Below are positions 146 through 27,239 of a stretch of 34,937 nucleotides of DNA, one piece after another. How positions within the stretch are numbered: position 1 is the stretch's first letter; every line of letters begins with the position of its first letter. Under the pieces are notes generated by a model that did not search any database, had not been told where the DNA came from, and saw nothing but the letters and a program-made list of their open reading frames with translations. Location of the stretch: contig JBGPNU010000001.1 of the NCBI GenBank assembly GCA_041487675.1, positions 1 to 34,937 on the forward strand, given 5' to 3'. Position numbers and translations under genes: made by a program. This DNA is from Candidatus Binatus sp. (GTDB taxonomy: Bacteria; Desulfobacterota; Binatia; Binatales; Binataceae).

Positions 146-154
146 TTTGTCTTA

Positions 155-171
155 CCTCGCCCGTTATTTCA
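155..171 (+). repeat. R1 hairpin repeat, left half (split by the IS insertion)
   Basis: CCTCGCCCGTTATTTCA. Joined to 2597-2616 it rebuilds CCTCGCCCGTTATTTCACGGGAGAGGTTAGGTGAGGG, identical to the intact copy at 27068-27104. Confidence 0.85.
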
Positions 172-195
172 GGCGAGTATAACGGACTTGACACC
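172..195 (+). repeat. IS left terminal inverted repeat (IRL)
   Basis: GGCGAGTATAACGGACTTGACACC, exact reverse complement of 2565-2588; preceded by target duplication TTATTTCA (164-171). Confidence 0.9.
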
Positions 196-217
196 AAGAC
201 CGATTTAGGTGTAAAGT
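188..217 (+). promoter_or_regulatory. Putative inward-facing sigma70-like promoter partly inside IRL
   Basis: TTGACA (188-193), 18-nt spacer, TAAAGT (212-217). Only 6 nt separate the -10 from the transposase ATG at 224, so the mRNA would be leaderless or nearly so. Confidence 0.4.
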
Positions 218-223
218 CTGTTC

Positions 224-1156
224 ATGATCAGCCTTCGACAAATTCACGAGCAGTACAAAACACAAGATGCGTGCATGAAATTGTTGGTCAGCCTTCGCTG
301 GCCCGATGGTGTCCGTTGCCCACGCTGCGGCAATGAAAGGGTTTTCAAGATCAAACATCGCGCTTGGAATTGGGTATGTAAGAGCGGCAAAGAAAGCGTG
401 AACGAGCAAACTGGCGAAGTGCTGGTCTGCAAGAAAAACGGCTATCGCTTTTCGCCGCTGGTCGGCACCGTCTTTGAAAATACCAATTACCCACTGCCGA
501 TTTGGTTCGAGGTGATCTATCTCATTTGCCAGAGCAAGAAGGTTATGAGCGCGTTGCAGGTCCAGCGGATGCTGCAAGAGGATGGTAGGCCGACAGCGTA
601 CAAAACCGCCTTCTACATTTGCCATCGCGTGCGCGCGATGTTCAAAGACGATTCGTTTTCTCAACTGATGGGCGAAGTTGAAGTGGACGAAACCTACATC
701 GGCGGGAAGGACACCAATCGCCATTGGGGCAAGAAACACCACAAGACTGGCGGATGGGATAAGACTCCGGTGATCGGCGCGATTGCGCGCAAAGGTAACG
801 TGGTCTGCAAGATGATCGAGAATGCAGATATGCCGACGATGAGCCGGTTCGTCGCTGAAACGGTCAGCAAGAAAGTCTCGCTGGTTGCGACCGATGAACA
901 CTCCGGCTATCAATACCTTGAGCGCTGGCAAAATCTGCCGCACCAGACCGTGAACCATCGCGATCATGAGTACGTTCGCGGATTGGTTCATACCAATAAC
1001 ATCGAAAGTTTCTGGTCGCTCTTGAAGCGCGGAATCATCGGCACGTACCACAACGTGAGCAAGAAATATCTGCCGCTTTATCTGAATGAATTTCAGTGGA
1101 GATTTAACAACCGGAAAAATCCCGACATTTTCAGAGCGGCAATAAGAGGATGCTGA
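224..1156 (+). CDS. IS1595-family transposase (N-terminal zinc-ribbon plus ISXO2-like DDE domain)
   Basis: 310 aa. CPRCG...C zinc-ribbon near N-terminus, then VEVDETYIGG, ATDEHSGY, HTNNIESFWSLLKRG and YLNEFQWRFNNR blocks typical of the IS1595/ISXO2 transposase family. Confidence 0.9.
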   Translation: MISLRQIHEQYKTQDACMKLLVSLRWPDGVRCPRCGNERVFKIKHRAWNWVCKSGKESVNEQTGEVLVCKKNGYRFSPLVGTVFENTNYPLPIWFEVIYLICQSKKVMSALQVQRMLQEDGRPTAYKTAFYICHRVRAMFKDDSFSQLMGEVEVDETYIGGKDTNRHWGKKHHKTGGWDKTPVIGAIARKGNVVCKMIENADMPTMSRFVAETVSKKVSLVATDEHSGYQYLERWQNLPHQTVNHRDHEYVRGLVHTNNIESFWSLLKRGIIGTYHNVSKKYLPLYLNEFQWRFNNRKNPDIFRAAIRGC

Positions 1157-1304
1157 AGCGACCGAACTGGCGGGCGCTTCAGCCGCATACCAGACCGATA
1201 CAGTTGGAACTTTTCGCAACGCGCCACACTCCGCTTGCTGCACGAAATCGCGGTCGCTAGCATGGGAAATCACCGCTAAAAAGCAAAGGGGGTATCAAGC
1301 CAAA

Positions 1305-1484
1305 ATGACCGACAACGACCGCCGTCTTATTGAAGACGTTTACGTCGCTCAAGTCTTAACCCTAGCGAAATCCCTTCAATCTGAGGATTCTCAAAAAGGT
1401 ACGTGGACCAGCGAGGACGGTATCGGTAGGGCCTTAAAACTTATCGATAAGGAGCGCTCTCAAATTCTTTTCGGAAAGCCTTGA
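1305..1484 (+). CDS. Hypothetical small protein (59 aa), IS cargo
   Basis: ATG at 1305 preceded by AAAGGGGG (1285-1292). Reads MTDNDRRLIEDVYVAQVLTLAKSLQSEDSQKGTWTSEDGIGRALKLIDKERSQILFGKP. Below the ORF-track size cut-off; no family recognised. Confidence 0.25.
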   Translation: MTDNDRRLIEDVYVAQVLTLAKSLQSEDSQKGTWTSEDGIGRALKLIDKERSQILFGKP

Positions 1485-1656
1485 GATTTGTGTTCGCCGC
1501 ATCAACTTTGTGGCTTGTCATGAGCATGCGCCTAACTTGTTCGATCGTCTCAAACGCGTCGCATAGGCGCATGCCATCGAGCAGCGGTATGATTTTGAAT
1601 GTCGCGGCTGTTGTCGCGCGCTCGCTGGATGTGTTCATAAACCGACTTTTGCACAC
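1441..1656 (-). CDS. Hypothetical small protein (71 aa, or 65 aa from ATG at 1638), IS cargo
   Basis: ORF track; helical-looking sequence IIPLLDGMRLCDAFETIEQVRRMLMTSHKVDAANTNLKAFRKEFE. Its 3' end overlaps the convergent 59-aa ORF by 44 nt; no family recognised. Confidence 0.25.
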   Translation of the reverse strand: MCKSRFMNTSSERATTAATFKIIPLLDGMRLCDAFETIEQVRRMLMTSHKVDAANTNLKAFRKEFESAPYR

Positions 1657-1783
1657 CGCGCGCGTGCCAATTTGGATGAAAAAAGTGCCGGAGTGAGACG
1701 CTCGGCTTCAAAGTATCCGGGTATTCCATTTCATTCTCGTAGCAGGCACGCGGTAAAATCAGCTAAGAATTGACGGATAATCT

Positions 1784-1927
1784 ATGCCCAAGCAAGAAGA
1801 CGACAAGCCGGTGTCGCTCCATCCCCTCAGCTTTGAGGATGCGTTGAAGCGGATGTTAAGAACTCCGCCAGTGAACCCAGCGAAGCGCAAGAAGCGACCT
1901 AAAGCAGCAAAGAAATCTATGCGATGA
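1784..1927 (+). CDS. Hypothetical small basic protein (47 aa), IS cargo
   Basis: ATG at 1784. Reads MPKQEDDKPVSLHPLSFEDALKRMLRTPPVNPAKRKKRPKAAKKSMR, TGA at 1925-1927; overlaps the 3' end of the convergent 206-aa ORF by 11 nt. Confidence 0.25.
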   Translation: MPKQEDDKPVSLHPLSFEDALKRMLRTPPVNPAKRKKRPKAAKKSMR

Positions 1928-2537
1928 ATTGGCAGAGATGGGGCTTTTGTTTTACGTCTCGAAAGTGAACTGCGAAATCGGCCCGTACGCCAAGCTTCTT
2001 TATCCTCTCTGGATAGTCGCCATCAAGTCGGAATCGTAGCTCTACATGCCTGAGAGCCCCGGTTGGAATCTCATTGCAGGAACAATCTCCATCGGGATAG
2101 GACACGCCGAACGGTTCGAATAAGAGGCCAGGCACAAGTTTCGGAATTTCAAGTTTCCAATTCTCGGCAATCGTCGGCTCGCCAGCGTTTCGCACTGACA
2201 TCGTAAATCGGATCACTACCGAGCTTTGTACAACGTGCCGTTCGTCTAACTTCGTCTCGGTTGAAATCGCTATTGGGCCATCAACAACCGGAATCAGATC
2301 GTAGGGTACATATTCGGCGCGCCAAGCTGCGTAAGCTCCTACGCAGAATGCCCCGATAAAAAACAGGAATAGCCAAAAGGACGAAAGTCCGAATAGATTC
2401 GTTATAACGAATATCAAGACAGCGCTAACCCCTGCGCCCATTATCATGTCGGCCCAGCGTGCCCGGATTCTGTCGAGAAACACGCCGAACAGGGTATATC
2501 GCGAAAGGTAACTCCGAACGCCGTCGCACCATGCCAT
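1917..2537 (-). CDS. Hypothetical two-TM membrane protein with soluble beta-rich C-terminal domain, IS cargo
   Basis: 206 aa. Two hydrophobic helices (GAGVSAVLIFVITNLFGL and FWLFLFFIGAFCVGAYAAW) followed by about 130 residues of unknown fold. Starts 5 nt downstream of a near-consensus promoter embedded in IRR. Confidence 0.55.
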   Translation of the reverse strand: MAWCDGVRSYLSRYTLFGVFLDRIRARWADMIMGAGVSAVLIFVITNLFGLSSFWLFLFFIGAFCVGAYAAWRAEYVPYDLIPVVDGPIAISTETKLDERHVVQSSVVIRFTMSVRNAGEPTIAENWKLEIPKLVPGLLFEPFGVSYPDGDCSCNEIPTGALRHVELRFRLDGDYPERIKKLGVRADFAVHFRDVKQKPHLCQFIA

Positions 2538-2542
2538 GCGAC

Positions 2543-2572
2543 GTTATACGGCGCTAAGTCGTTAGGTGTCAA
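2543..2572 (-). promoter_or_regulatory. Putative inward-facing sigma70-like promoter partly inside IRR
   Basis: Minus strand reads TTGACA (2572-2567), 18-nt spacer, TATAAC (2548-2543), then 5 nt to the ATG at 2537; mirror image of the IRL promoter. Confidence 0.45.
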
Positions 2573-2588
2573 GTCCGTTATACTCGCC
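2565..2588 (-). repeat. IS right terminal inverted repeat (IRR)
   Basis: GGTGTCAAGTCCGTTATACTCGCC, exact reverse complement of 172-195; followed by target duplication TTATTTCA (2589-2596). Confidence 0.9.
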
Positions 2589-2616
2589 TTATTTCACGGG
2601 AGAGGTTAGGTGAGGG
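2589..2616 (+). repeat. R1 hairpin repeat, right half (split by the IS insertion)
   Basis: TTATTTCACGGGAGAGGTTAGGTGAGGG, continuing the half-copy at 155-171. Confidence 0.85.
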
Positions 2617-2704
2617 TTCTGCCAACCGCTTGCGAGCGCAACCTTGTCTCGATTATGAGGCGACCATAGAGTACTAGCCGCATTGTCTGCGGGGGAAAGA
2701 TTTA

Positions 2705-3400
2705 TTGCGAAAGGCAGCTAATTTTATTGTGGCGGCGATCGCCGGCGCCGTAATGCCGATCTCTGCTGCGGTATGGGCAGGACCCGATAGCGCGGGCGTC
2801 CTGCTGGTCCAGGACAATTGGGTTCGGGTACCTTCGTCCGGTGGCAGTGATGACTCAGAACCTGCGCGTCACTCGAGTTCGCAAGACCGCCAGGTGAGCG
2901 CAGACCATCCGCAGCTCGGCGGCGACAACGCGTCGATAACGATCGTGGAATACTCCGACTTCCAGTGCCCGTATTGCCGCCAGGCGGAAAGTTCACTCAG
3001 GCAAGTGCTGAAAAAGTATGGCGACCGGGTGCGGCTGGTGTACATGGATTTCCCGTTGTCTTTTCATCAACACGCCATGGAAGAAGCCATGGCGGCGCGA
3101 TGCGCCAATGAGCAGGGCCAGTTCTGGGCCTATCATGACGCGCTCTTTGAAAATCCGTCGGGACTCTCGACGCCTGCATTAAAGACGGCTGCGGCGCAGC
3201 TTGGGCTGGACCGCGCAAGTTTCGATGCGTGTCTCGATGAGCACAAGTACAAGAGTGCCGTAGTCGCCGATCGGACGCAGGGCGAGATGGCCGGTGCGAG
3301 CGGGACACCCTACTTCATAGTAGGTGGCCATTCGATGAGTGGCGCACAGCCGCCTTCAGCATTCGAGTCAGTGATCGACCAGGAGCTTGAGAGCCGCTAG
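2705..3400 (+). CDS. Secreted DsbA-family thiol:disulfide oxidoreductase (thioredoxin fold)
   Basis: 231 aa. N-terminal signal-like segment AANFIVAAIAGAVMPISAAVWA, thioredoxin active site FQCPYCRQ, DsbA-like C-terminal GTPYFIVGG. TTG start from ORF track. Confidence 0.8.
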   Translation: MRKAANFIVAAIAGAVMPISAAVWAGPDSAGVLLVQDNWVRVPSSGGSDDSEPARHSSSQDRQVSADHPQLGGDNASITIVEYSDFQCPYCRQAESSLRQVLKKYGDRVRLVYMDFPLSFHQHAMEEAMAARCANEQGQFWAYHDALFENPSGLSTPALKTAAAQLGLDRASFDACLDEHKYKSAVVADRTQGEMAGASGTPYFIVGGHSMSGAQPPSAFESVIDQELESR

Positions 3401-3422
3401 TTCTCCGACGAAAGCGGCCCTT

Positions 3423-3489
3423 CTTACCTCGCCCGTTATTTCACGGGAGAGGGGGCCGGCCGCCTTGCGGCCGGCAGGTGAGGGTTCTG
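3423..3489 (+). repeat. R1 hairpin repeat, long form (with inserted GC hairpin)
   Basis: CTTACCTCGCCCGTTATTTCACGGGAGAGG + GGGCCGGCCGCCTTGCGGCCGGC + AGGTGAGGGTTCTG. Inverted partner at 3793-3858. Confidence 0.85.
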
Positions 3490-3490
3490 C

Positions 3491-3706
3491 GCGATCGTCG
3501 TAGCGCTTTTGCGCGTCTGCGTGCTGTTCTCCATCGAGTTCGACGATCAGCCTTGCACCGATGCAGCAGAAATCGACAATGAACGCGTCGATCGCAACCT
3601 GTCTGCGGAACTTCCAGCCACCAAGCTTCCGATTTTGGAGGATCGACCAGAGCCGCTTCTCAGCGTCGGTCTAATCGCAGCGGAGTGCGCGCGAACGATT
3701 GAGCGG
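3491..3706 (-). pseudogene. DUF559 (Vsr-like endonuclease domain) gene remnant: in-frame stop and 3' truncation
   Basis: Minus strand reads LNRSRALRCD*TDAEKRLWSILQNRKLGGWKFRRQVAIDAFIVDFCCIGARLIVELDGEQHADAQKRYDDR. This matches the DUF559 pattern (TxAExxLW...FRRQ...DF...vElDGxxH...D). TAG at 3671-3673. The expected C-terminal R..L...G..v.RF block is replaced by repeat R1 (3423-3489). Confidence 0.8.
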
Positions 3707-3792
3707 TTTCTTCCTATCAGTCGCGGCGGCGTGAGATCGGCCATCGCTCGACAATCGCACATTTGAACGCGGAGATGAAACGGCGATCGATC

Positions 3793-3858
3793 CAGAACCC
3801 TCACCTACCGGCCGCAAGGCGGCCGGCCTCCTCTCCCGTAAACATAACGGGCGAGGTA
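3793..3858 (-). repeat. R1 hairpin repeat, long form, inverted
   Basis: Reverse complement reads TACCTCGCCCGTTATGTTTACGGGAGAGGAGGCCGGCCGCCTTGCGGCCGGTAGGTGAGGGTTCTG; near-identical to 3423-3489. Confidence 0.85.
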
Positions 3859-3922
3859 TTGGAGGCAGACGGCGAGGCATCGAGCCGATCGCGAGGGGTG
3901 AGGTGCTGCCACCGCGCGGGCG

Positions 3923-5419
3923 TTAGCGGCGGTCGTCCTTCAGCCCGTCTTCATTGGCGAGAAACAGATGCAACTGCGAGGGGCCGTTGTCGCTTGGAAT
4001 CTCAACCGGATAATTGCCGGTGAAGCAGGCGTCGCAAAATCCCTCGCGGCTCTCGCCATTGAACGAGTAGAGGCCGTCCCAACTTAGATAGGCCAGCGAG
4101 TCGGCCGTGATGTGACGGCGAATCTGTTCGATCGAGTGCGACGATGCGAGCAGTTCCTCGCGCGTGGGTGTGTCGATTCCGTAAAAGCACGAGTTCGTGG
4201 TCGGCGGCGCCGCGATGCGCATGTGTACTTCGCGGGCGCCCGCCTGCCGGAGCATCGGGATCACTTTTCTGAGCGTGGTCCCGCGCACCAGCGAGTCCTC
4301 GATCAGCACGATTCGCTTGCCGCGCAACAATTCGGCCACCGGGTTGAACTTGATCTTCACGCCGAAATGGCGAATCGACTGGCGCGGCTCGATAAACGTG
4401 CGCCCGACGTAGTGGCTGCGCACCAGTCCCATCTCGAACGGAATTCCCGATTCCTCCGCATAGCCGAGCGCCGCGGGCGTGCCCGAGTCGGGCACCGGCA
4501 CCACGATATCCGCAACCGCGGGAGCTTCGCGCGCGAGCGCGCGGCCCTGCTGCTTTCGCACCTGGTACACGCTGCGCCCGTACACCTGGCTGTCGGGGCG
4601 GGAGAAATATACGTACTCGAAAATGCATCGCTTGGCCGGCGCATGCGCAAACGGACTCAGCGAACGCATCCCGCTGTCATCGACGACGATCATCTCACCG
4701 GGATTGATCTCGCGAATATACTCGGCGCGCACCAGGTCGAGCGCGCAGGTCTCCGACGCCACTATCGTTGCGCCATTCAGTTGTCCGAGCACCAGCGGAC
4801 GGAACCCATGCGGATCGCGCACCGCAAGCATCGCGTCTTCGGTCAGCACCACCAGCGAGTACGCGCCGCGCACCTGCGCCAGCGCCTCTGCCACCCGCTC
4901 GGACAGCGTGGGCGCGCGCGACGCCGCGATCAGATGAATCATCACCTCGCTGTCCGACGACGACTGAAAGAGCGATCCGCTCGACTCCAGCCGCTCGCGC
5001 AGTTCCTTGAAATTGACCAGGTTGCCATTGTGCGCGAGCGCCAGCGCGCCGTGCGCATACTCTCCGACCAGCGGCTGGCAGTTGTTGATCGTAGTCGAGC
5101 CGGTCGTCGAGTAGCGGTTATGTCCGATCGCGCTGGTGCCTTCGAGTTTGGCGATGATCGTGTTGTTGAAGACGTCGGCGACCAGCCCCATCCCGCGATG
5201 CGAGATCAGCGACCTGCCGTTGGACGAGACAATCCCCGCCGATTCCTGCCCGCGATGCTGCTGCGCGTACAGCCCCAAGTACGCGAGGTTGGCCGCCTCG
5301 GGATGCCGATACACGCCGAAGACGCCGCATTCCTCGTGGAAAACATCGAGGTTAGATTCTTCGAAGTCCGATTCGATGTCCGATTCTTCGACCGCTATGA
5401 CCGCGTCTTCTTCAGTCAC
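3923..5419 (-). CDS. purF: Amidophosphoribosyltransferase
   Basis: 498 aa. Ntn catalytic Cys context [16 protein letters not shown], PRTase loop [14 protein letters not shown]-terminal Cys cluster. GTG start overlaps the purL stop by 8 nt. Confidence 0.93.
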
Positions 5420-15348: not shown

Positions 15349-15441
15349 TCGGAGTTCTTACTTTCCCTTTTCCTTTATCTTTAGCCGCCCAAATTAACAG
15401 AGCCGGTCAGCGGAGTAAAGGTAGGGTTATTTCAGGGAAAA

Positions 15442-15545
15442 ACCAAAAAAGAAATGCGAAACCTCACGCAGGTGGAGTTTACCCTGAGCGAAGCCGAAGG
15501 GCGCTTCCCGTTGGTTAATCGCAAAACGCCGCGGACGACGCTTCG
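15442..15545 (-). repeat. R3 repeat copy (inverted orientation) with a 27-nt internal insertion
   Basis: Aligns to the reverse complement of 16571-16660: CAAAAAAGAAA..TGCGAAACCTCACGCAGGT[insert GGAGTTTACCCTGAGCGAAGCCGAAGG]GCGCTTCCCGTTGGTTAATCGCAAAACGCCGCGGACGACG. Confidence 0.8.
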
Positions 15546-15579
15546 ATCCGATATTCGGTGAAACCGGCGGAGTCGGGAA

Positions 15580-16488
15580 TCAGGTATGCGCGCCTTCCGG
15601 ATTGAAGATTCGCTCGATGATCGCCGTGACGCGCGAAGATGTCCGTGCGATCGCAATCAGCTCGCCTGCCGCGGAGACTACCTTGAACAGCCTGGTGCCC
15701 GGCGGCGCAATCGAATCGAGCGCTCGCGAATCGCCGTTGCGGAGCCGAGCCTCAACAACCGCATCGACGGTGAGCTCGGGTGTGTCCGGAAGCGCCGCGC
15801 GCAAACTGAGAATCCGAGGGATCGGCGCGCCGGAATCGAGCGCCGCGATGACGTCATCCAGGGTGGACGCGTCGGCTATTGAGAACGCGCCGTTGCGGGT
15901 GCGGCGGAGTTCCTCGAGATGCGCGACTGTGCCGAGCGCGACGCCGATATCCCGCGCGAGCGCCCGCGCGTACGTGCCGGGAGTGCATACCGCGACGAAT
16001 CGAATGGCGTCGGCACTCGTGGCATCGCGGGCGAGCTCGAGGCGCTTAATCTCGACGCGGCGGACAGTGGGAGGTTCGACGCTCTCGCCCCGGCGCGCGA
16101 GCCGATAAAGCGGAACGCCGGCGCGTTTGATCGCTGAGTACACTGGAGGAACCTGATCGATCACGCCGGTGAATCGCGCCACGACCTCTGCAATTTTTTC
16201 AGGCGATATGGCGGGCACCTCGGCGCTGCGAACGACGGCGCCATCGCGATCCAGGGTGTCAGTCTCGGTACCGAGCCGGATCAGGCCCGCATATGTTTTA
16301 TCGCCACCGCCGATAAATGGCGCGAGCTTGGTCGCCTCGCCGATCATGATCGGCAGCAATCCAGTCGCGAAGGGATCGAGCGTGCCGAGATGTCCGACCC
16401 GCGCCGGCTTGACCCGCGACTTGATGCGCCGGACCACGTCGGCCGATGAGATGCCGGCGGGTTTATCTACGAGCACAATTGCATTCAT
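15580..16488 (-). CDS. truB: tRNA pseudouridine(55) synthase
   Basis: Start placed at MNAIVLVDKPAGISS (ATG 16488); an upstream ATG at 16530 is possible. Catalytic motif GHLGTLDPFATG. Confidence 0.9.
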   Translation of the reverse strand: MNAIVLVDKPAGISSADVVRRIKSRVKPARVGHLGTLDPFATGLLPIMIGEATKLAPFIGGGDKTYAGLIRLGTETDTLDRDGAVVRSAEVPAISPEKIAEVVARFTGVIDQVPPVYSAIKRAGVPLYRLARRGESVEPPTVRRVEIKRLELARDATSADAIRFVAVCTPGTYARALARDIGVALGTVAHLEELRRTRNGAFSIADASTLDDVIAALDSGAPIPRILSLRAALPDTPELTVDAVVEARLRNGDSRALDSIAPPGTRLFKVVSAAGELIAIARTSSRVTAIIERIFNPEGAHT

Positions 16489-16570
16489 CGGGAGATCTTT
16501 GAGCCTATCCGCTCGGAGGGCATTGAACAAATCGCAGCCGCAGACTCAGCAGTTTTCCCCCCTATTCTCA

Positions 16571-16660
16571 GAGCGAAACGTCGTCCGCGACGTTTCGCGA
16601 TTAGCCAACGGGAAGCGCGAAACCTGCGTGAGGTTTCGCATCTCTTATTTCTTTTTTTGC
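16571..16660 (+). repeat. R3 repeat copy with two hairpins
   Basis: GCGAAACGTCG-TCCG-CGACGTTTCGC, then TTAGCCAACGGGAAGC, then GCGAAACC-TGCGTGA-GGTTTCGC, then a T-rich tail. Lies in the divergent truB/ndh intergenic region. Confidence 0.8.
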
Positions 16661-18616: not shown

Positions 18617-18673
18617 GGGAGTGCTCAGTCTTTGAGGAGTGGATTGTTTCAGTAGTGTGTTGATGCGGGCGGC
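18617..18673 (-). pseudogene. Decayed duplicate of the last ~18 codons of rbfA
   Basis: About three-quarters nucleotide identity by eye, with one 1-nt indel, to 19082-19137. Minus strand reads AARINTLLKQSTPQRLS versus authentic AARIDALLKQSAPKD-stop. Confidence 0.7.
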
Positions 18674-18684
18674 TTGTGGCGCTC

Positions 18685-18766
18685 GCGAAGGAAAAGGCAT
18701 CCTTGCAGCAGACCCTCACCCGACGCGCGATGACGCGCGTCGGCCTCTCCCTGATAGAGAGAGGCT
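18685..18766 (+). repeat. R2 hairpin repeat
   Basis: GCGAAGGAAAAGGCATCCTTGCAGCAGACCCTCACC + hairpin CGACGCGCG-ATGA-CGCGCGTCG + GCCTCTCCCTGATAGAGAGAGGCT. Paralog at 27159-27239. Confidence 0.8.
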
Positions 18767-18873
18767 TGGAAGGTTCCGGGATTCGCTACAGCAACTTTCG
18801 CTTCAGAATGACACAAAGACCGAACGATACAGAATAAGCAGGGAACGACGTAGCACACTTGCATCTTGAGCCG

Positions 18874-18940
18874 CAGAACCCTCACCTACCGGCCGCGATG
18901 CGGCCAGCCGCCTCTCCCGTGAAATAACGGGCGAGGTAAG
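18874..18940 (-). repeat. R1 hairpin repeat, long form, inverted
   Basis: CAGAACCCTCACCTACCGGCCGCGATGCGGCCAGCCGCCTCTCCCGTGAAATAACGGGCGAGGTAAG. Confidence 0.85.
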
Positions 18941-18975
18941 AATCGGACTTCACCAGCGCCTCCACCCTCAACCCG

Positions 18976-19069
18976 TTCTAACAGGGACGAAGTCCCGCAT
19001 CTTCTCCTAATACTAAGGTGCAGGGGTTACCCCTGCCCAGGGAAGTGTGAAACCCACGGTGGGTTTCAC
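18976..19069 (+). repeat. Composite repeat block: TTCTAACAGG module, GCAGGGG-TTA-CCCCTGC hairpin, GGGAAG + GAAACC hairpin (R3 core)
   Basis: Hairpins at 19020-19036 and 19047-19069 (GTGAAACCCA-CGG-TGGGTTTCAC). Ends 21 nt 3' of the rbfA stop. Related blocks at 27249-27336 and 30970-31085. Confidence 0.75.
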
Positions 19070-19089
19070 GTTCAATTAAGCGGAGGTGC

Positions 19090-23100: not shown

Positions 23101-24552
23101 TTACGATTTTTCTCCCGCATCTTCGCTCGCCGCGGGAGCGGAATCTTCGCTCGCCGCAGGAGCGGAGTCTTCGCTCGCCGCAGGCGCGGGCTCCTCCGCA
23201 ATTGTCGCGGCGGCCGCTTCCGCCCCTTCGGCTTCGGTTGCGGCGAGCGCTTCGGCGGCGGCAATCTCCGCGGCGGCAGCTTCCGCAGCGGCGGCCTTGG
23301 CTTCCGCCGCAATCTTTTTGTTGGCGACGTGCTCGCGCGCCGCGTTGATTATCTGGGTGGCGCGCTCGGCGCTGATACCCTCGACGTCGAAGGCGGTCTC
23401 ATCGGCCTCGGACAATTGCTCGGCCGAGCGGAAGCCCCACTGGTAGAGCAACTCGGCGTTGATGTCGCCGATGCCGGGAATCGCGTTCAGCGAGGCGCGC
23501 GCGGAGCGGGCCTCCTCTTCGGCCTCGGCCTCGCTGCGCACATCGAGCTTCCATCCGGTGAGCCGATGCGCCAGGCGCACGTTCTGGCCGCGCTTTCCAA
23601 TCGCGAGCGAGAGCTGATCGTCGGGCACGATCACTTCCATGGCGTGCTCGTCCTCGTCGATAATGACCTTGGAGACTTTTGCGGGCGCGAGCGCGCGGCA
23701 GACCAACTCGGCCTGGTCGTCGGTCCACGGCACGATGTCGATTTTTTCGCCGCGCAGCTCCTGCACCACCGATTGCACGCGGGTGCCCTTCATCCCGACG
23801 CAAGCGCCGACCGGATCGACGTCGGAATCCTTGGAATAGACCGCGACTTTGGCGCGTCCGCCGGGCTCGCGGGCGCTCTGGCGAATCTCGACGATGCCCT
23901 CGTAAATTTCCGGCACTTCCTGCTCGAACAGCTTCATCAGGAAGTCGTTGGCGGTGCGCGAGAGCACGATCGAAAGCCCTTTCTCCGACAGATCGACGTC
24001 GAGTATCAGCGCGCGGATGCGATCGCCCTGGCGATAGCGCTCGTGCGGGATCTGCTCCTTCTCGGGAAGGATCGCCTCGGTGCGGCCGAGATTCACGATC
24101 ATGTTCTTGCGCTCGAAGCGCTGCACGATTCCCGAGACGACTTCGAGCTTGCGATCTTTATATTCGTTGAAGATCTGTTTGCGCTCGGCGTCGCGGATAT
24201 GCTGGATGAGATTCTGCTTGGCCGCCTGCGCCGCGATCCGGCCCATCGTGGCAGTGTCGAGCTTGATCAAGATTTCGTCGCCGACTTCCGCTTCTGGATC
24301 GTACTTGGCGCGCGCTTCCGCCACGTCAGCCTCGGCGGCCGAGTTGGCCACTTTTTCGACGACCGTCTTGATCTCGAACAGCTCGATCTCGCCAAGCTCG
24401 GGATTGAACCGCGATTCGATATTGCGGTCGGGGCCGAAAGTGCGGCGCGCCGCCGAATGCATCATTTCCTCGACCGCGTTGATCACGATCGTCTTGTCGA
24501 TGCCTTTTTCCTTGGAGACCTGCTCGATTACCCGGTTCAGATCGACCTGCAT
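23101..24552 (-). CDS. nusA: Transcription termination/antitermination factor NusA with Ala/Glu-rich repetitive C-terminal tail
   Basis: 483 aa. NusA N-domain, S1 (G.IV.G.V), KH1/KH2 (VGACVGMKG.R, AIGKRGQNVRLA), HhH region, then an AAEA-rich tail. GGAGG 5 nt upstream of the ATG. Confidence 0.95.
   Translation of the reverse strand: MQVDLNRVIEQVSKEKGIDKTIVINAVEEMMHSAARRTFGPDRNIESRFNPELGEIELFEIKTVVEKVANSAAEADVAEARAKYDPEAEVGDEILIKLDTATMGRIAAQAAKQNLIQHIRDAERKQIFNEYKDRKLEVVSGIVQRFERKNMIVNLGRTEAILPEKEQIPHERYRQGDRIRALILDVDLSEKGLSIVLSRTANDFLMKLFEQEVPEIYEGIVEIRQSAREPGGRAKVAVYSKDSDVDPVGACVGMKGTRVQSVVQELRGEKIDIVPWTDDQAELVCRALAPAKVSKVIIDEDEHAMEVIVPDDQLSLAIGKRGQNVRLAHRLTGWKLDVRSEAEAEEEARSARASLNAIPGIGDINAELLYQWGFRSAEQLSEADETAFDVEGISAERATQIINAAREHVANKKIAAEAKAAAAEAAAAEIAAAEALAATEAEGAEAAAATIAEEPAPAASEDSAPAASEDSAPAASEDAGEKS
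23120..23191 (-). repeat. 3 x 24-bp in-frame tandem repeat in the nusA 3' end
   Basis: Units TCTTCGCTCGCCGCGGGAGCGGAA / TCTTCGCTCGCCGCAGGAGCGGAG / TCTTCGCTCGCCGCAGGCGCGGGC, encoding PAPAASED SAPAASED SAPAASED. Confidence 0.9.
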
Positions 24553-27067: not shown

Positions 27068-27104
27068 TTGTCTGGTCCCTCGCCCGTTATTTCACGGGAG
27101 AGGT
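27068..27104 (+). repeat. R1 hairpin repeat, short form, intact
   Basis: CCTCGCCCGTTATTTCACGGGAGAGGTTAGGTGAGGG, identical to the sequence rebuilt by excising the IS at 172-2588. Confidence 0.85.
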
Positions 27105-27158
27105 TAGGTGAGGGTGCCGTCAGCGCATGACACAACCGCGAGAGCGCGTGCGAAAACC

Positions 27159-27239
27159 GCGAAGAAGGGCATCTTAGCAAGTGGACCCTCACCCGCGCCT
27201 CGAAAACTCGGCGCGGCCTCTCCCTGTCAGGGAGAGGCT
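27159..27239 (+). repeat. R2 hairpin repeat
   Basis: GCGAAGAAGGGCATCTTAGCAAGTGGACCCTCACC + hairpin CGCGCC-TCGAAAACTC-GGCGCG + GCCTCTCCCTGTCAGGGAGAGGCT. Confidence 0.8.

Follow-up and report, generated by a model that had tools for sequence, protein, structure and literature searches.

A decaying DUF559 nuclease cassette between BoxC/PIT/TM-type repeats in Candidatus Binatus and its counterparts in other bacteria

The present study deals with a short segment (positions 3421 to 3908) in a 34,937-nt stretch of DNA from Candidatus Binatus sp. of the Binataceae (GenBank assembly GCA_041487675.1, contig JBGPNU010000001.1, positions 1 to 34,937), which was analysed as a whole and is called the window hereafter. 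The segment holds one copy, now decaying, of a compact ~0.5-kb cassette, which consists of a gene for a nuclease of the DUF559 family and of copies of a dispersed hairpin repeat designated R1. Judged by its sequence, R1 is a Binataceae variant of BoxC/PIT/TM, a repeat family that is already known. Cassettes in which a DUF559 gene is bracketed by the host genome's own BoxC/PIT/TM variant recur widely in bacteria, and the pairing of gene and repeat spans at least five phyla, E. coli ycjD included. The DUF559 family of proteins is very large; a structure has been solved, and a role has not been agreed upon. An earlier note on the window, which had been made by a model from the letters of the DNA, stated that it knew of no described DUF559-repeat system, and neither such a system nor a paper linking DUF559 to BoxC/TM repeats turned up in the literature searched (DUF559, ycjD, BoxC, intrastrand triplex, REP together with Vsr). 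As far as we could find, the DUF559-TM cassette is undescribed, and the locus in the window is a new, dead member.

The DUF559 locus of the window

Two R1 copies frame the gene in inverted orientation. The copy at the 3' flank of the gene (3421-3491, forward strand) and the copy at its 5' flank (3793-3858, reverse strand) have the same central hairpin, and their arms are complementary over 50 nt at 94% (3440-3489 with 3793-3842) and over 15 nt at 100% (3425-3439 with 3844-3858), the two pairs of arms being divided by a 1-nt indel in the hairpin loop. The inverted copies that the earlier note had recognised are thus confirmed; the extent of the first was refined to 3421-3491 and a third, degenerate R1 (3859-3908, forward strand), which abuts the cassette, was added. 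Six occurrences of the core of the GC-rich central hairpin were counted in the window, compared to 0.10 expected. The copy at 3421-3491 consists of CCTCGCCCGT-TATTTC-ACGGGAGAGG, a GC hairpin of the sequence GCCGGCCGC-CTT-GCGGCCGGC and a final GGTGAGGGTTCTG; by this order of segments, it is of the BoxC/TM type and has one more hairpin, located in its second loop. As single-stranded DNA, both copies are predicted to fold into two hairpins (-22.7 kcal/mol and z = -3.2 for 3421-3491; -20.7 kcal/mol and z = -4.5 for 3793-3858). In the first hairpin CCTCGCCCGT pairs with ACGGGAGAGG with a single G.A mismatch, in the second GCCGGCCGC pairs with GCGGCCGGC, and the 3' GGTGAGGGTTCTG stays unpaired; the predictions are limited to Watson-Crick hairpins, and the GGTGAGGG tail is single-stranded in them.

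The DUF559 pseudogene occupies 3492-3744 on the reverse strand and was delimited by its match to PF04480, by its translations and by alignment with intact cassettes. The peptide encoded between the arms matches the DUF559 profile with E=2e-24 and 86 bits (cut-off 20.6), and Pfam also reports MTES_1575 weakly and leaves the Vsr family unreported. The match is limited to profile positions 4-74 of 109, which means that about 35 C-terminal residues of the domain are gone. Three lesions can be distinguished. The true start is the ATG at 3744-3742, which gives MADLTPPRLI as in intact homologues, and it is split from the core (TDAEKRLW...KRYDDR, 3670-3494, reverse strand) by a -1 frameshift, the loss of one base near 3713 at about codon 11. 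An in-frame TAG follows at 3673-3671. Finally, a 3' deletion of about 146 nt (about 49 codons; alignment columns 493-645 relative to intact cassettes) between ...KRYDDR and the downstream R1 has fused codon ~84 to the repeat. The dead state of the gene and the loss of its last ~35 codons, both of which had been noted before, are borne out by these data, the latter as a deletion that joins the gene to R1; the frameshift had been missed. The window copy does not have a complete PF04480 domain in an open frame; it keeps the ...VDF...ELDGEQH... segment and is devoid of the last strand and the helices. A microhomology deletion between two CGCTACG motifs was considered as the source of the 146-nt loss, which is suggestive in locus L126 and not demonstrable (loci compared in this study are denoted by L and a number).

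Between the upstream R1 and the start codon lies a conserved spacer of 48 nt (3745-3792, reverse strand), which is homologous to spacers in L069, L012, L126 and L116 and is presumably the 5' untranslated region or the promoter of the cassette. A scan of the intact cassette of L069 for sigma-70 promoters found no consensus. The cassette is neighboured by a DsbA-like gene (2705-3400) and by purF (3923-5419).

Intact cassettes and orthologous sites in Binatus

The fragment has 127 close homologues of 120-152 aa and is up to 92% identical to intact Binatus proteins of this length. A third of the full-length homologues (24/73) continue into R1, their last residues being ...QNPHLPAARRPASSPVK or QNPHLTSPVK. 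These tails are translations of the long and the short form of R1, respectively, with the stop codon in the loop of the first hairpin; R1 in the orientation of 3421-3491 encodes the former. Often, the last ~17 codons and the stop of a Binatus paralogue thus belong to the repeat at the 3' end, and the remaining full-length homologues end just ahead of an R1. For instance, L069 has an intact gene between inverted short R1 copies, and the 48 nt that precede its ATG are homologous to 3745-3792 of the window. R1 stands on both sides of the gene also in L115-L117, L119, L120 and the P0040 locus (L202, L203, L205), and L012/L197 have a 3' copy and a degenerate 5' copy. In intact cassettes, the inverted upstream R1 is found at the same distance as in the window. 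The two R1 ends of one unit usually share the central hairpin and units differ from each other in it, L202 being an exception. Essentially all Binatus paralogues examined have this layout, as had been anticipated for intact DUF559 genes. As a side observation, L202 and L203 (3450-3890) differ by the presence or absence of a gene with a helix-turn-helix (HTH) domain beside the 3' R1 of an otherwise identical DUF559 cassette.

The paralogues reside at different loci, each of which is stable across samples: between dsbA and purF (the window), between dacC... and kdsB-pyrG, and between nrd and HTH. Nothing marks the window copy as the burnt-out master copy that the earlier note took it for; it is one among several paralogous cassettes that all have loci of their own.

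Orthologous sites were found in two other loci. L126 belongs to another genome, its dsbA-like gene being 79.5% identical in DNA, and its cassette is full-length, has TTG where the window has TAG and is inactivated by different frameshifts. Therefore, the cassette has decayed independently at this orthologous site. In L043, the purF-purL region is orthologous at 85% identity and a single R1 is present in place of dsbA and the cassette, which shows that R1 copies bound a presence/absence segment. The order in L043 (2836-2902) is gene X, which ends in FVQDIVDSEP, one R1 and purF, and in the window (150-3908) it is gene X, R1 (with an insertion sequence), dsbA, R1, the DUF559 pseudogene, R1, the degenerate R1 and purF. 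The degenerate R1, which was identified by BLAST alignment with L043 and by a pattern match at 3830-3904, is orthologous to the solitary R1 of L043; the alignment of the two loci starts at 3877, within the R1 of L043. The segment of 3.3 kb that is present in one locus and absent from the other lies between direct R1 copies, as would fit recombination of the repeats. A gene-less doublet at a position where another genome has a cassette was not found at the orthologous positions, L043 having a single R1 and L126 a cassette.

R1 as a variant of the BoxC/PIT/TM repeat

A literature search by sequence string led to the identity of the repeat. BoxC (Bergler 1992), which was first reported in the sequence paper on envM (= fabI), is the same as PIT (Hoyne & Maher 2000, 2002) and TM(ECO), the "intrastrand triplex" repeat (Holder 2015, PMC4666352). 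The published motif is 5'-CCCTCNCCC N3-6 GGGNGAGGG N3 GGGNGAGGG, and 3610 copies were counted in 262 proteobacterial genomes, 23 of them in E. coli MG1655 (PMC4666352). The repeat has been linked to locally variable DNA, and promoter or terminator activity was absent; its origin and mobility were left unexplained and the authors reported no mobility gene or enzyme nearby (PMC4666352). The triplex was shown by circular dichroism and nuclear magnetic resonance (NMR) for E. coli TMs only, and of the five tandem inverted TM sites tabulated for MG1655, four are in facing orientation according to the listed strands (PMC4666352).

R1 and BoxC/TM have the same segments in the same order, i.e. a C-rich stem, a loop, a G-rich stem, a short loop and a mirror G-rich segment. 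The short form of R1, CCCTCGCCC..GGGAGAGG-TTA-GGTGAGGG, and the E. coli type "A mm", CCCTCGCCCC-TTT-GGGGAGAGGG-TTA-GGGTGAGGGG, have in common the G.A mismatch of the stem and the TTA loop. Moreover, both repeats are dispersed and intergenic, occur as singlets and inverted doublets and are tied to local rearrangement. They differ in that the stems of R1 are one base shorter and its first hairpin is extended by CGT/ACG. The R1 copies of the cassette do not fit the published pattern because a GC hairpin of 24 nt replaces the second loop of 3 nt, and the short R1 at 27078-27114, with stems of 8 nt and a longer first loop, does not fit it either. R1 is thus a variant and not a strict member of the family, and R1/R2 are not a new repeat family. 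In the general plan of the repeat, a loop connects a pyrimidine stem to a purine stem, a hairpin may come next, and the last part is a mirror purine segment; the repeat is found in many solitary and doublet copies too. The third segment of R1 mirrors the purine stem, which follows the logic of a purine-motif triplex. A G-quadruplex reading of GGGAGAGGGNNGGGTGAGGG was set aside since the published NMR data favour a triplex and the covariation of the mirror segments fits a triplex.

Rfam gave no gathering-level match in the window or in 20 loci. The second repeat, R2, has the plan of R1 with a different first hairpin, and it aligns to the full whalefall-1 model (RF01762, positions 1-56) with 24.3 bits, which is below the gathering score of 37; R1 and the other loci have no match. 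R2 has the two-hairpin-plus-GGGUGAGG layout of whalefall-1, and this likeness suggests that whalefall-1 may be a DNA repeat of the BoxC/TM family with a hairpin in the second loop rather than a small RNA (sRNA).

R1 is dispersed, as had been stated before. A 26-nt core of the repeat has more than 112 exact matches in the genome collection, and all 80 records listed are metagenome-assembled genomes of Candidatus Binatus, Binataceae or a related "delta proteobacterium"; the R1-bearing loci of these records share 80-86% identity with parts of the window. With a relaxed pattern, 179 elements were counted in the 873 kb of Binataceae loci fetched, about one per 5 kb, and seven in the window (five R1 and two R2). 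The short R1 has TTA between GGGAGAGG and GGTGAGGG, and the long R1 has a variable GC hairpin in that place. DUF559 is present at only 3 of 112 R1 loci; thus, most R1 copies are solitary.

The pairing of DUF559 and the repeat in other bacteria

The recurrence of the nuclease gene between repeats of its own genome holds for the Binatus paralogues and for most DUF559 genes of other phyla. A metagenome scan with protein alignment yielded 80 DUF559 loci, 72 of which encode proteins just 42-62% identical to the query. The element precedes the gene in 53/76 loci and follows it in 54/70, and 40/66 have it on either side. With a background of 0.029 per equal zone and strand, this corresponds to a roughly 25-fold enrichment beside DUF559 over 80 diverse loci. 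When the proteins were clustered at 70% identity, 36 of 48 clusters had at least one flank and 23 of 48 both flanks. Downstream of the gene, the element reads CCCTCACC, an optional hairpin, CCTCTCCC, a loop and GGGAGAGG; upstream, the inverted copy ends 5-20 nt ahead of the start codon.

The element is also visible in the proteins, because the tails of many of them are encoded by it. Most metagenome DUF559 ORFs end in tails such as PHPNPLPxGERE, PSPRPSP or PLPNPSPARGEG. TM-encoded tails were found in 25/39 and 68/105 homologues, compared to 1/497 control open reading frames (ORFs) of at least 100 aa from the same contigs; the tail pattern occurs in 33-65% of DUF559 proteins and in 0.2% of the controls. 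Loci in which the tail lies outside the tblastn match have the same flank frequencies, which rules out that the enrichment is an artefact of selection.

The copies at the gene and those elsewhere on its contig belong to one and the same repeat variant, e.g. CCTTCTCCC/GGGAGAAGG/GGATGAGGG or CCCTCCCCC/GGGGGAGGG/GGGTGGGGG. Without exception, the third segment mirrors the purine stem, and covariation across lineages is seen for the pairs GGGAGAGG/GGTGAGGG, GGGAGAAGG/GGATGAGGG, GGGGGAGGG/GGGTGGGGG and GGGAGAGAG/GAGAGAGGG. The flanking hairpins point outward in Binatus and most Proteobacteria. They point inward at the DUF559 genes of Azospirillum and Synechocystis, and in two species of Deinococcus, at two unrelated loci (L210, L212), inverted CCCCTCCC-CCTCCCCC-loop-GGGGGAGG elements have their hairpins facing the gene. 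Picosynechococcus has direct C5/G5/G5 repeats, and N. gonorrhoeae NGO0050, the gene for the protein of PDB entry 3HRL, is flanked on both sides by direct repeats of ~110 nt with a TM-like motif (L207, 470-520 and 1085-1130). These differences in flank orientation between phyla disfavour a simple model of a transposon with terminal inverted repeats. In a published survey, "DUF559 domain-containing protein" was 14-fold enriched among the targets of "programmed inversion", which are flanked by inverted repeats, and this was left uncommented.

The ycjD gene of E. coli

The DUF559 gene ycjD (b1289) of E. coli ends in ...RRSPSP, and its last codons and the stop lie in CACCCTCTCCC-TGAAAGAG-CGAGGGG, a degenerate BoxC. 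The canonical TM#9 is located 167 nt from ycjD, between ycjD and fabI. In MG1655 (L193, 1700-1930), a partial duplicate of the 3' end of ycjD (GGAGACGGTGCTGGAGAATATTC...) and a degenerate TM precede TM#9, and in other E. coli strains the ycjD ORF runs on to ...GPLAPLGRGLG, the translation of TM#9. The sequences indicate a past tandem rearrangement at this locus. Nearly all enterobacterial YcjD homologues end in ...LPSPRPSP, and here too the stop falls within the loop of the hairpin. Among the best 120 YcjD homologues, no protein is named as from Salmonella, and TM(ECO) is absent from Salmonella (PMC4666352).

It has been reported that phylogroups A, B1 and C have ycjD and that eefRABCD takes its place elsewhere. 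The strains with published TM counts were grouped by the phylogroups that we take them to have, the labels being ours and not those of the table. Grouped in this way, the counts of Holder Table S1 are 1-2 in B2, 6-7 in F, 10-11 in E, 12-15 in D, 13-24 in A, 23 in C (APEC O78) and 25-30 in B1. A combined query with ycjD and TM was run against 5426 complete genomes, of which 3377 have ycjD. Among 60 genomes taken from the 5426 at even spacing, those with ycjD had 9-22 matching places (median 16) and those without it 1-14 (median 3), with a Mann-Whitney p = 1e-9 that is uncorrected for phylogeny. The correlation between repeat number and DUF559 across genomes that had been proposed is therefore seen in E. 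coli insofar as TM counts track ycjD, but phylogeny confounds it.

Further repeats in the window and related loci

Several other repeats lie in the window. A solitary R1 of the short form (150-171 and 2589-2625, forward strand) is split by an insertion sequence of the IS1595 family (172-2588), which sits exactly in the hairpin loop and is flanked by an 8-bp duplication, TTATTTCA. The element has the terminal inverted repeat GGCGAGTATAACGGACTTGACACC and a transposase ORF (224-1156; PF12762 and PF12760, zinc ribbon); a second ORF (1917-2537, reverse strand) has no Pfam match. An R2 copy at ~18711-18767 (reverse strand) consists of a CCTCTCTC hairpin, a variable GC hairpin and GGGTGAGGG. It is followed by a solitary R1 of the long form (18872-18942, reverse strand), which is 93% identical to the 3421-3491 copy and beside which a search with the DUF559 hidden Markov model (HMM) found nothing. 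A weak tblastn match at 18631-18924 was rejected as a second DUF559 remnant, because it represents the R1-encoded tail and the HMM was negative. This R1 and a further hairpin region form a repeat of ~240 nt (18837-19080), which was observed with 73-86% identity in at least 11 Binatus loci (L001, L010, L036, L055, L059, L060, L075, L085, L086, L088, L104).

A TM doublet at 27073-27239 is composed of a short R1 (27073-27115, forward strand) and an R2 (27184-27239, reverse strand) with no gene in between; their inner ends face each other as around DUF559. Doublets in facing orientation predominate in Binatus loci (14 vs 0). The 68-nt spacer of the doublet (27116-27183) was rejected as a collapsed DUF559 gene, its conserved part belonging to R2 as judged by L108. 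Likewise, the gene-less inverted R1 pairs that are 170-250 nt apart in L007, L042, L079, L084 and L108 have no protein or DNA similarity to the gene, and the reading of them as decayed cassettes was dropped.

Inverted repeats enclose other genes too. In the window, truB (15580-16530, reverse strand) lies between inverted copies of another dispersed repeat (15438-15558 and 16561-16657; arms of 58 nt at 84% and 36 nt at 89%; hairpin CGAAACCTCACGCAGGTTTCG), which has further copies near 19038, 27305 and 31054. L059 (5440-6220) has an ORF similar to 3-methyladenine DNA glycosylase I (Tag) between two long R1 copies in inverted orientation, the sole non-DUF559 gene found in an inverted R1 pair among the 112 loci. 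For this reason, the geometry of a single locus alone is unconvincing. Apart from these repeats, three tandem units of 24 nt, TCTTCGCTCGCCGC[G/A]GGAGCGGA[A/G], were noticed at 23120-23196 within a long ORF region.

Relation of the nuclease and the cassette to known systems

The AlphaFold model of an intact homologue has a mean pLDDT of 68, with a core in the 80s and a disordered R1-encoded tail. Its best structural matches are, in this order, the DUF559 protein 3HRL, the homing endonuclease I-Bth0305I (3R3P) and Vsr. A sequence search links the homologue to PDB 3HRL with 1e-20 and, by phmmer, to 3R3P with E=0.024; Foldseek matches the latter with E=2.6e-5 and a TM-score of 0.78 on the target. 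The fold is thus related to that of a proven homing enzyme. The DUF559 cassette resembles I-Bth0305I, an EDxHD/Vsr-like enzyme, in the catalytic fold and in the behaviour of a selfish gene that decays after fixation. However, I-Bth0305I is encoded within a group I intron of a phage and possesses an additional DNA-binding region, whereas the DUF559 cassette is free-standing between repeats. With Vsr and with VsrA of Caulobacter, which carries a DUF559 domain, it shares the fold superfamily. Caulobacter VsrA was reported to cause SOS induction when a cytosine methyltransferase is deleted. In contrast to Vsr genes, the DUF559 genes studied here are multi-copy, decaying and flanked by repeats, and they are not accompanied by a cytosine methyltransferase; beside the window cassette, a C5-cytosine methyltransferase gene was not found, the neighbours being the DsbA-like gene and purF/purL.

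The likeness to REP elements and RAYT transposases is closer in arrangement than in enzymology. In both cases, a gene for a nuclease-type enzyme is flanked by inverted copies of a dispersed repeat of its own genome, the repeat is present in singlets and in inverted doublets, the repeat variant changes along with the gene between lineages and the gene is mostly chromosomal. The REP/RAYT-like geometry that the earlier note had seen in this locus is therefore real and recurrent, but the system does not belong to REP/RAYT, given that its enzyme is a Vsr-like PD-(D/E)xK nuclease, which Pfam assigns to DUF559 and MTES_1575, and not an HUH/Y1 (IS200-like) transposase. Moreover, the repeat is a triplex-type motif and not a palindrome headed by GTAG, Binatus has several diverged gene copies instead of one, and the pairing is known here from association. 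When compared to insertion sequences and miniature inverted-repeat transposable elements, the cassette has inverted ends and no target-site duplication, in contrast to the IS1595 copy with its true duplication.

Possible explanations

The explanation that we rank first, and to which we would give slightly less than an even chance, is a partnership of nuclease and repeat, comparable to that of RAYT with REP/REPIN, that lies behind the decaying cassette. The DUF559 nuclease would recognise the repeat as a hairpin, triplex or duplex and nick or cut there, and the breaks would be repaired by recombination between repeat copies. This repair could maintain, homogenise and occasionally copy the repeats and the cassette. 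The enzyme would belong to another class than RAYT, and the process would probably rely on host recombination and not on transposase chemistry. A redundant copy of the cassette would decay by a frameshift, then a stop codon and then an internal deletion, and doublets and solitary repeats would be the end products. A more far-reaching version appears rather unlikely to us, though possible. It holds that DUF559 proteins, including YcjD, are trans-acting partners of BoxC/PIT/TM bacteria-wide, and that they constitute a second REP/RAYT-like replicator, with a Vsr-like PD-(D/E)xK nuclease as its basis, a hairpin/triplex DNA motif as the target of the enzyme and an autonomous unit of ~0.5 kb (a gene between two repeats), smaller than any known insertion sequence.

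Several observations weigh against this partnership. The action of the nuclease on the repeat is deduced from the association of the two, and the earlier proposal that DUF559 is the mobilising enzyme of R1/R2 has likewise nothing but this association in its favour: no target-site duplication is visible at the flanks of aligned cassettes, and no clean insertion polymorphism was found. Each Binatus paralogue has a fixed locus across samples and some subfamilies are syntenic across taxa, as in the order metF, DUF559, metH; movement of the cassette must thus be rare at best. Flank orientation is not uniform between phyla, 20-30% of the DUF559 loci have no element, and inverted repeat pairs surround ordinary genes, namely truB in the window and tag in L059. 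Caulobacter VsrA is tied to cytosine methylation and DNA damage and not to repeats. In E. coli, the correlation of ycjD with TMs amounts to few independent contrasts, which are linked by phylogeny, and O157:H7 keeps ~10 TMs without ycjD. At the adk-hemH locus, the one TM locus compared between E. coli strains, which was considered as a clean empty TM site, TM-less strains carry a different spacer of 55 nt that replaces the TM-bearing segment of 160 nt; this is a segment replacement and neither a clean insertion nor a decayed motif. Carriage on plasmids was dropped as evidence for mobility, because the gene is rare there (35/72,556 records, many of them chromosomes or chromids).

Two rivals to the partnership of nuclease and repeat are serious. 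The first, which we consider unlikely, is that DUF559 is a host repair nuclease, which like Vsr mends T:G mismatches or processes non-B DNA, and that the TMs are cis-acting elements for its expression. The upstream GGTGAGGG would act as or mask the ribosome-binding site and would pair with the downstream CCCTCACC, thereby linking the 5' and 3' ends of the mRNA, the hairpin would be a stabiliser, and solitary TMs would be unrelated copies or substrates. This agrees with the SOS induction observed for Caulobacter VsrA, with subfamilies at conserved syntenic positions, with the rarity of the gene on plasmids and with the position of the stop codon in the loop of the hairpin and, in many lineages, of GGTGAGGG at 5-20 nt ahead of the start. 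However, repeated independent pseudogenisation and multi-copy, diverged paralogues in Binatus are unlike a repair gene that is needed, and a methyltransferase is not among the neighbours of the cassette. The spacer of 48 nt in Binatus is too long for a role of the repeat in ribosome binding, flank orientation varies between phyla, and the dispersal of the same lineage-specific variant over the whole genome would be left unexplained.

The second rival, to which we give still less credence, is a homing-type parasite. A free-standing DUF559 gene would cut a TM doublet or cluster and be copied in by recombination, with the TMs as homology arms; the TMs themselves would spread by other means, and the cassette would cycle through invasion, fixation and decay, the last of which is represented by the window. 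The closest characterised structural relative is indeed the homing endonuclease I-Bth0305I, gene-less facing doublets are common in Binatus, including 27073-27239 in the window, and at the MG1655 sites, pseudogenised copies occur at orthologous sites, several paralogues reside at different loci, and TMs persist in E. coli lineages without ycjD. But no gene-less doublet was found at a site that carries a cassette in another genome, lower TM numbers without ycjD are unexplained unless phylogeny alone accounts for them, and flanks in direct or opposite orientation in other phyla do not fit a single split target site.

The possibility that two abundant repeats landed by chance around an unrelated pseudogene, which a repeat-rich genome and the inverted pairs around truB and tag might suggest, is excluded, since the layout, the homologous spacer and the R1-encoded C-terminus recur in intact paralogues and at an orthologous locus, and both the flanks and the tails are strongly enriched at DUF559 genes of other bacteria.

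Significance

The oddity of the window, which seems unique when seen alone, is one decay stage of a common cassette. DUF559 is a candidate partner enzyme for the orphan repeat family BoxC/PIT/TM, and if this is true, two orphans explain each other, the repeats known since 1992 and the DUF559 proteins. The pairing would explain why DUF559 scores as a target of "programmed inversion" and why many annotated DUF559 proteins have odd PSPxPSP or PHPxPLPxGEG tails, and it bears on the whalefall-1 "sRNA" of Rfam, which is possibly a DNA repeat. The association over at least five phyla makes both questions, the partner of the repeat and the role of the protein, testable in E. coli K-12, with YcjD and the 23 TM sites.

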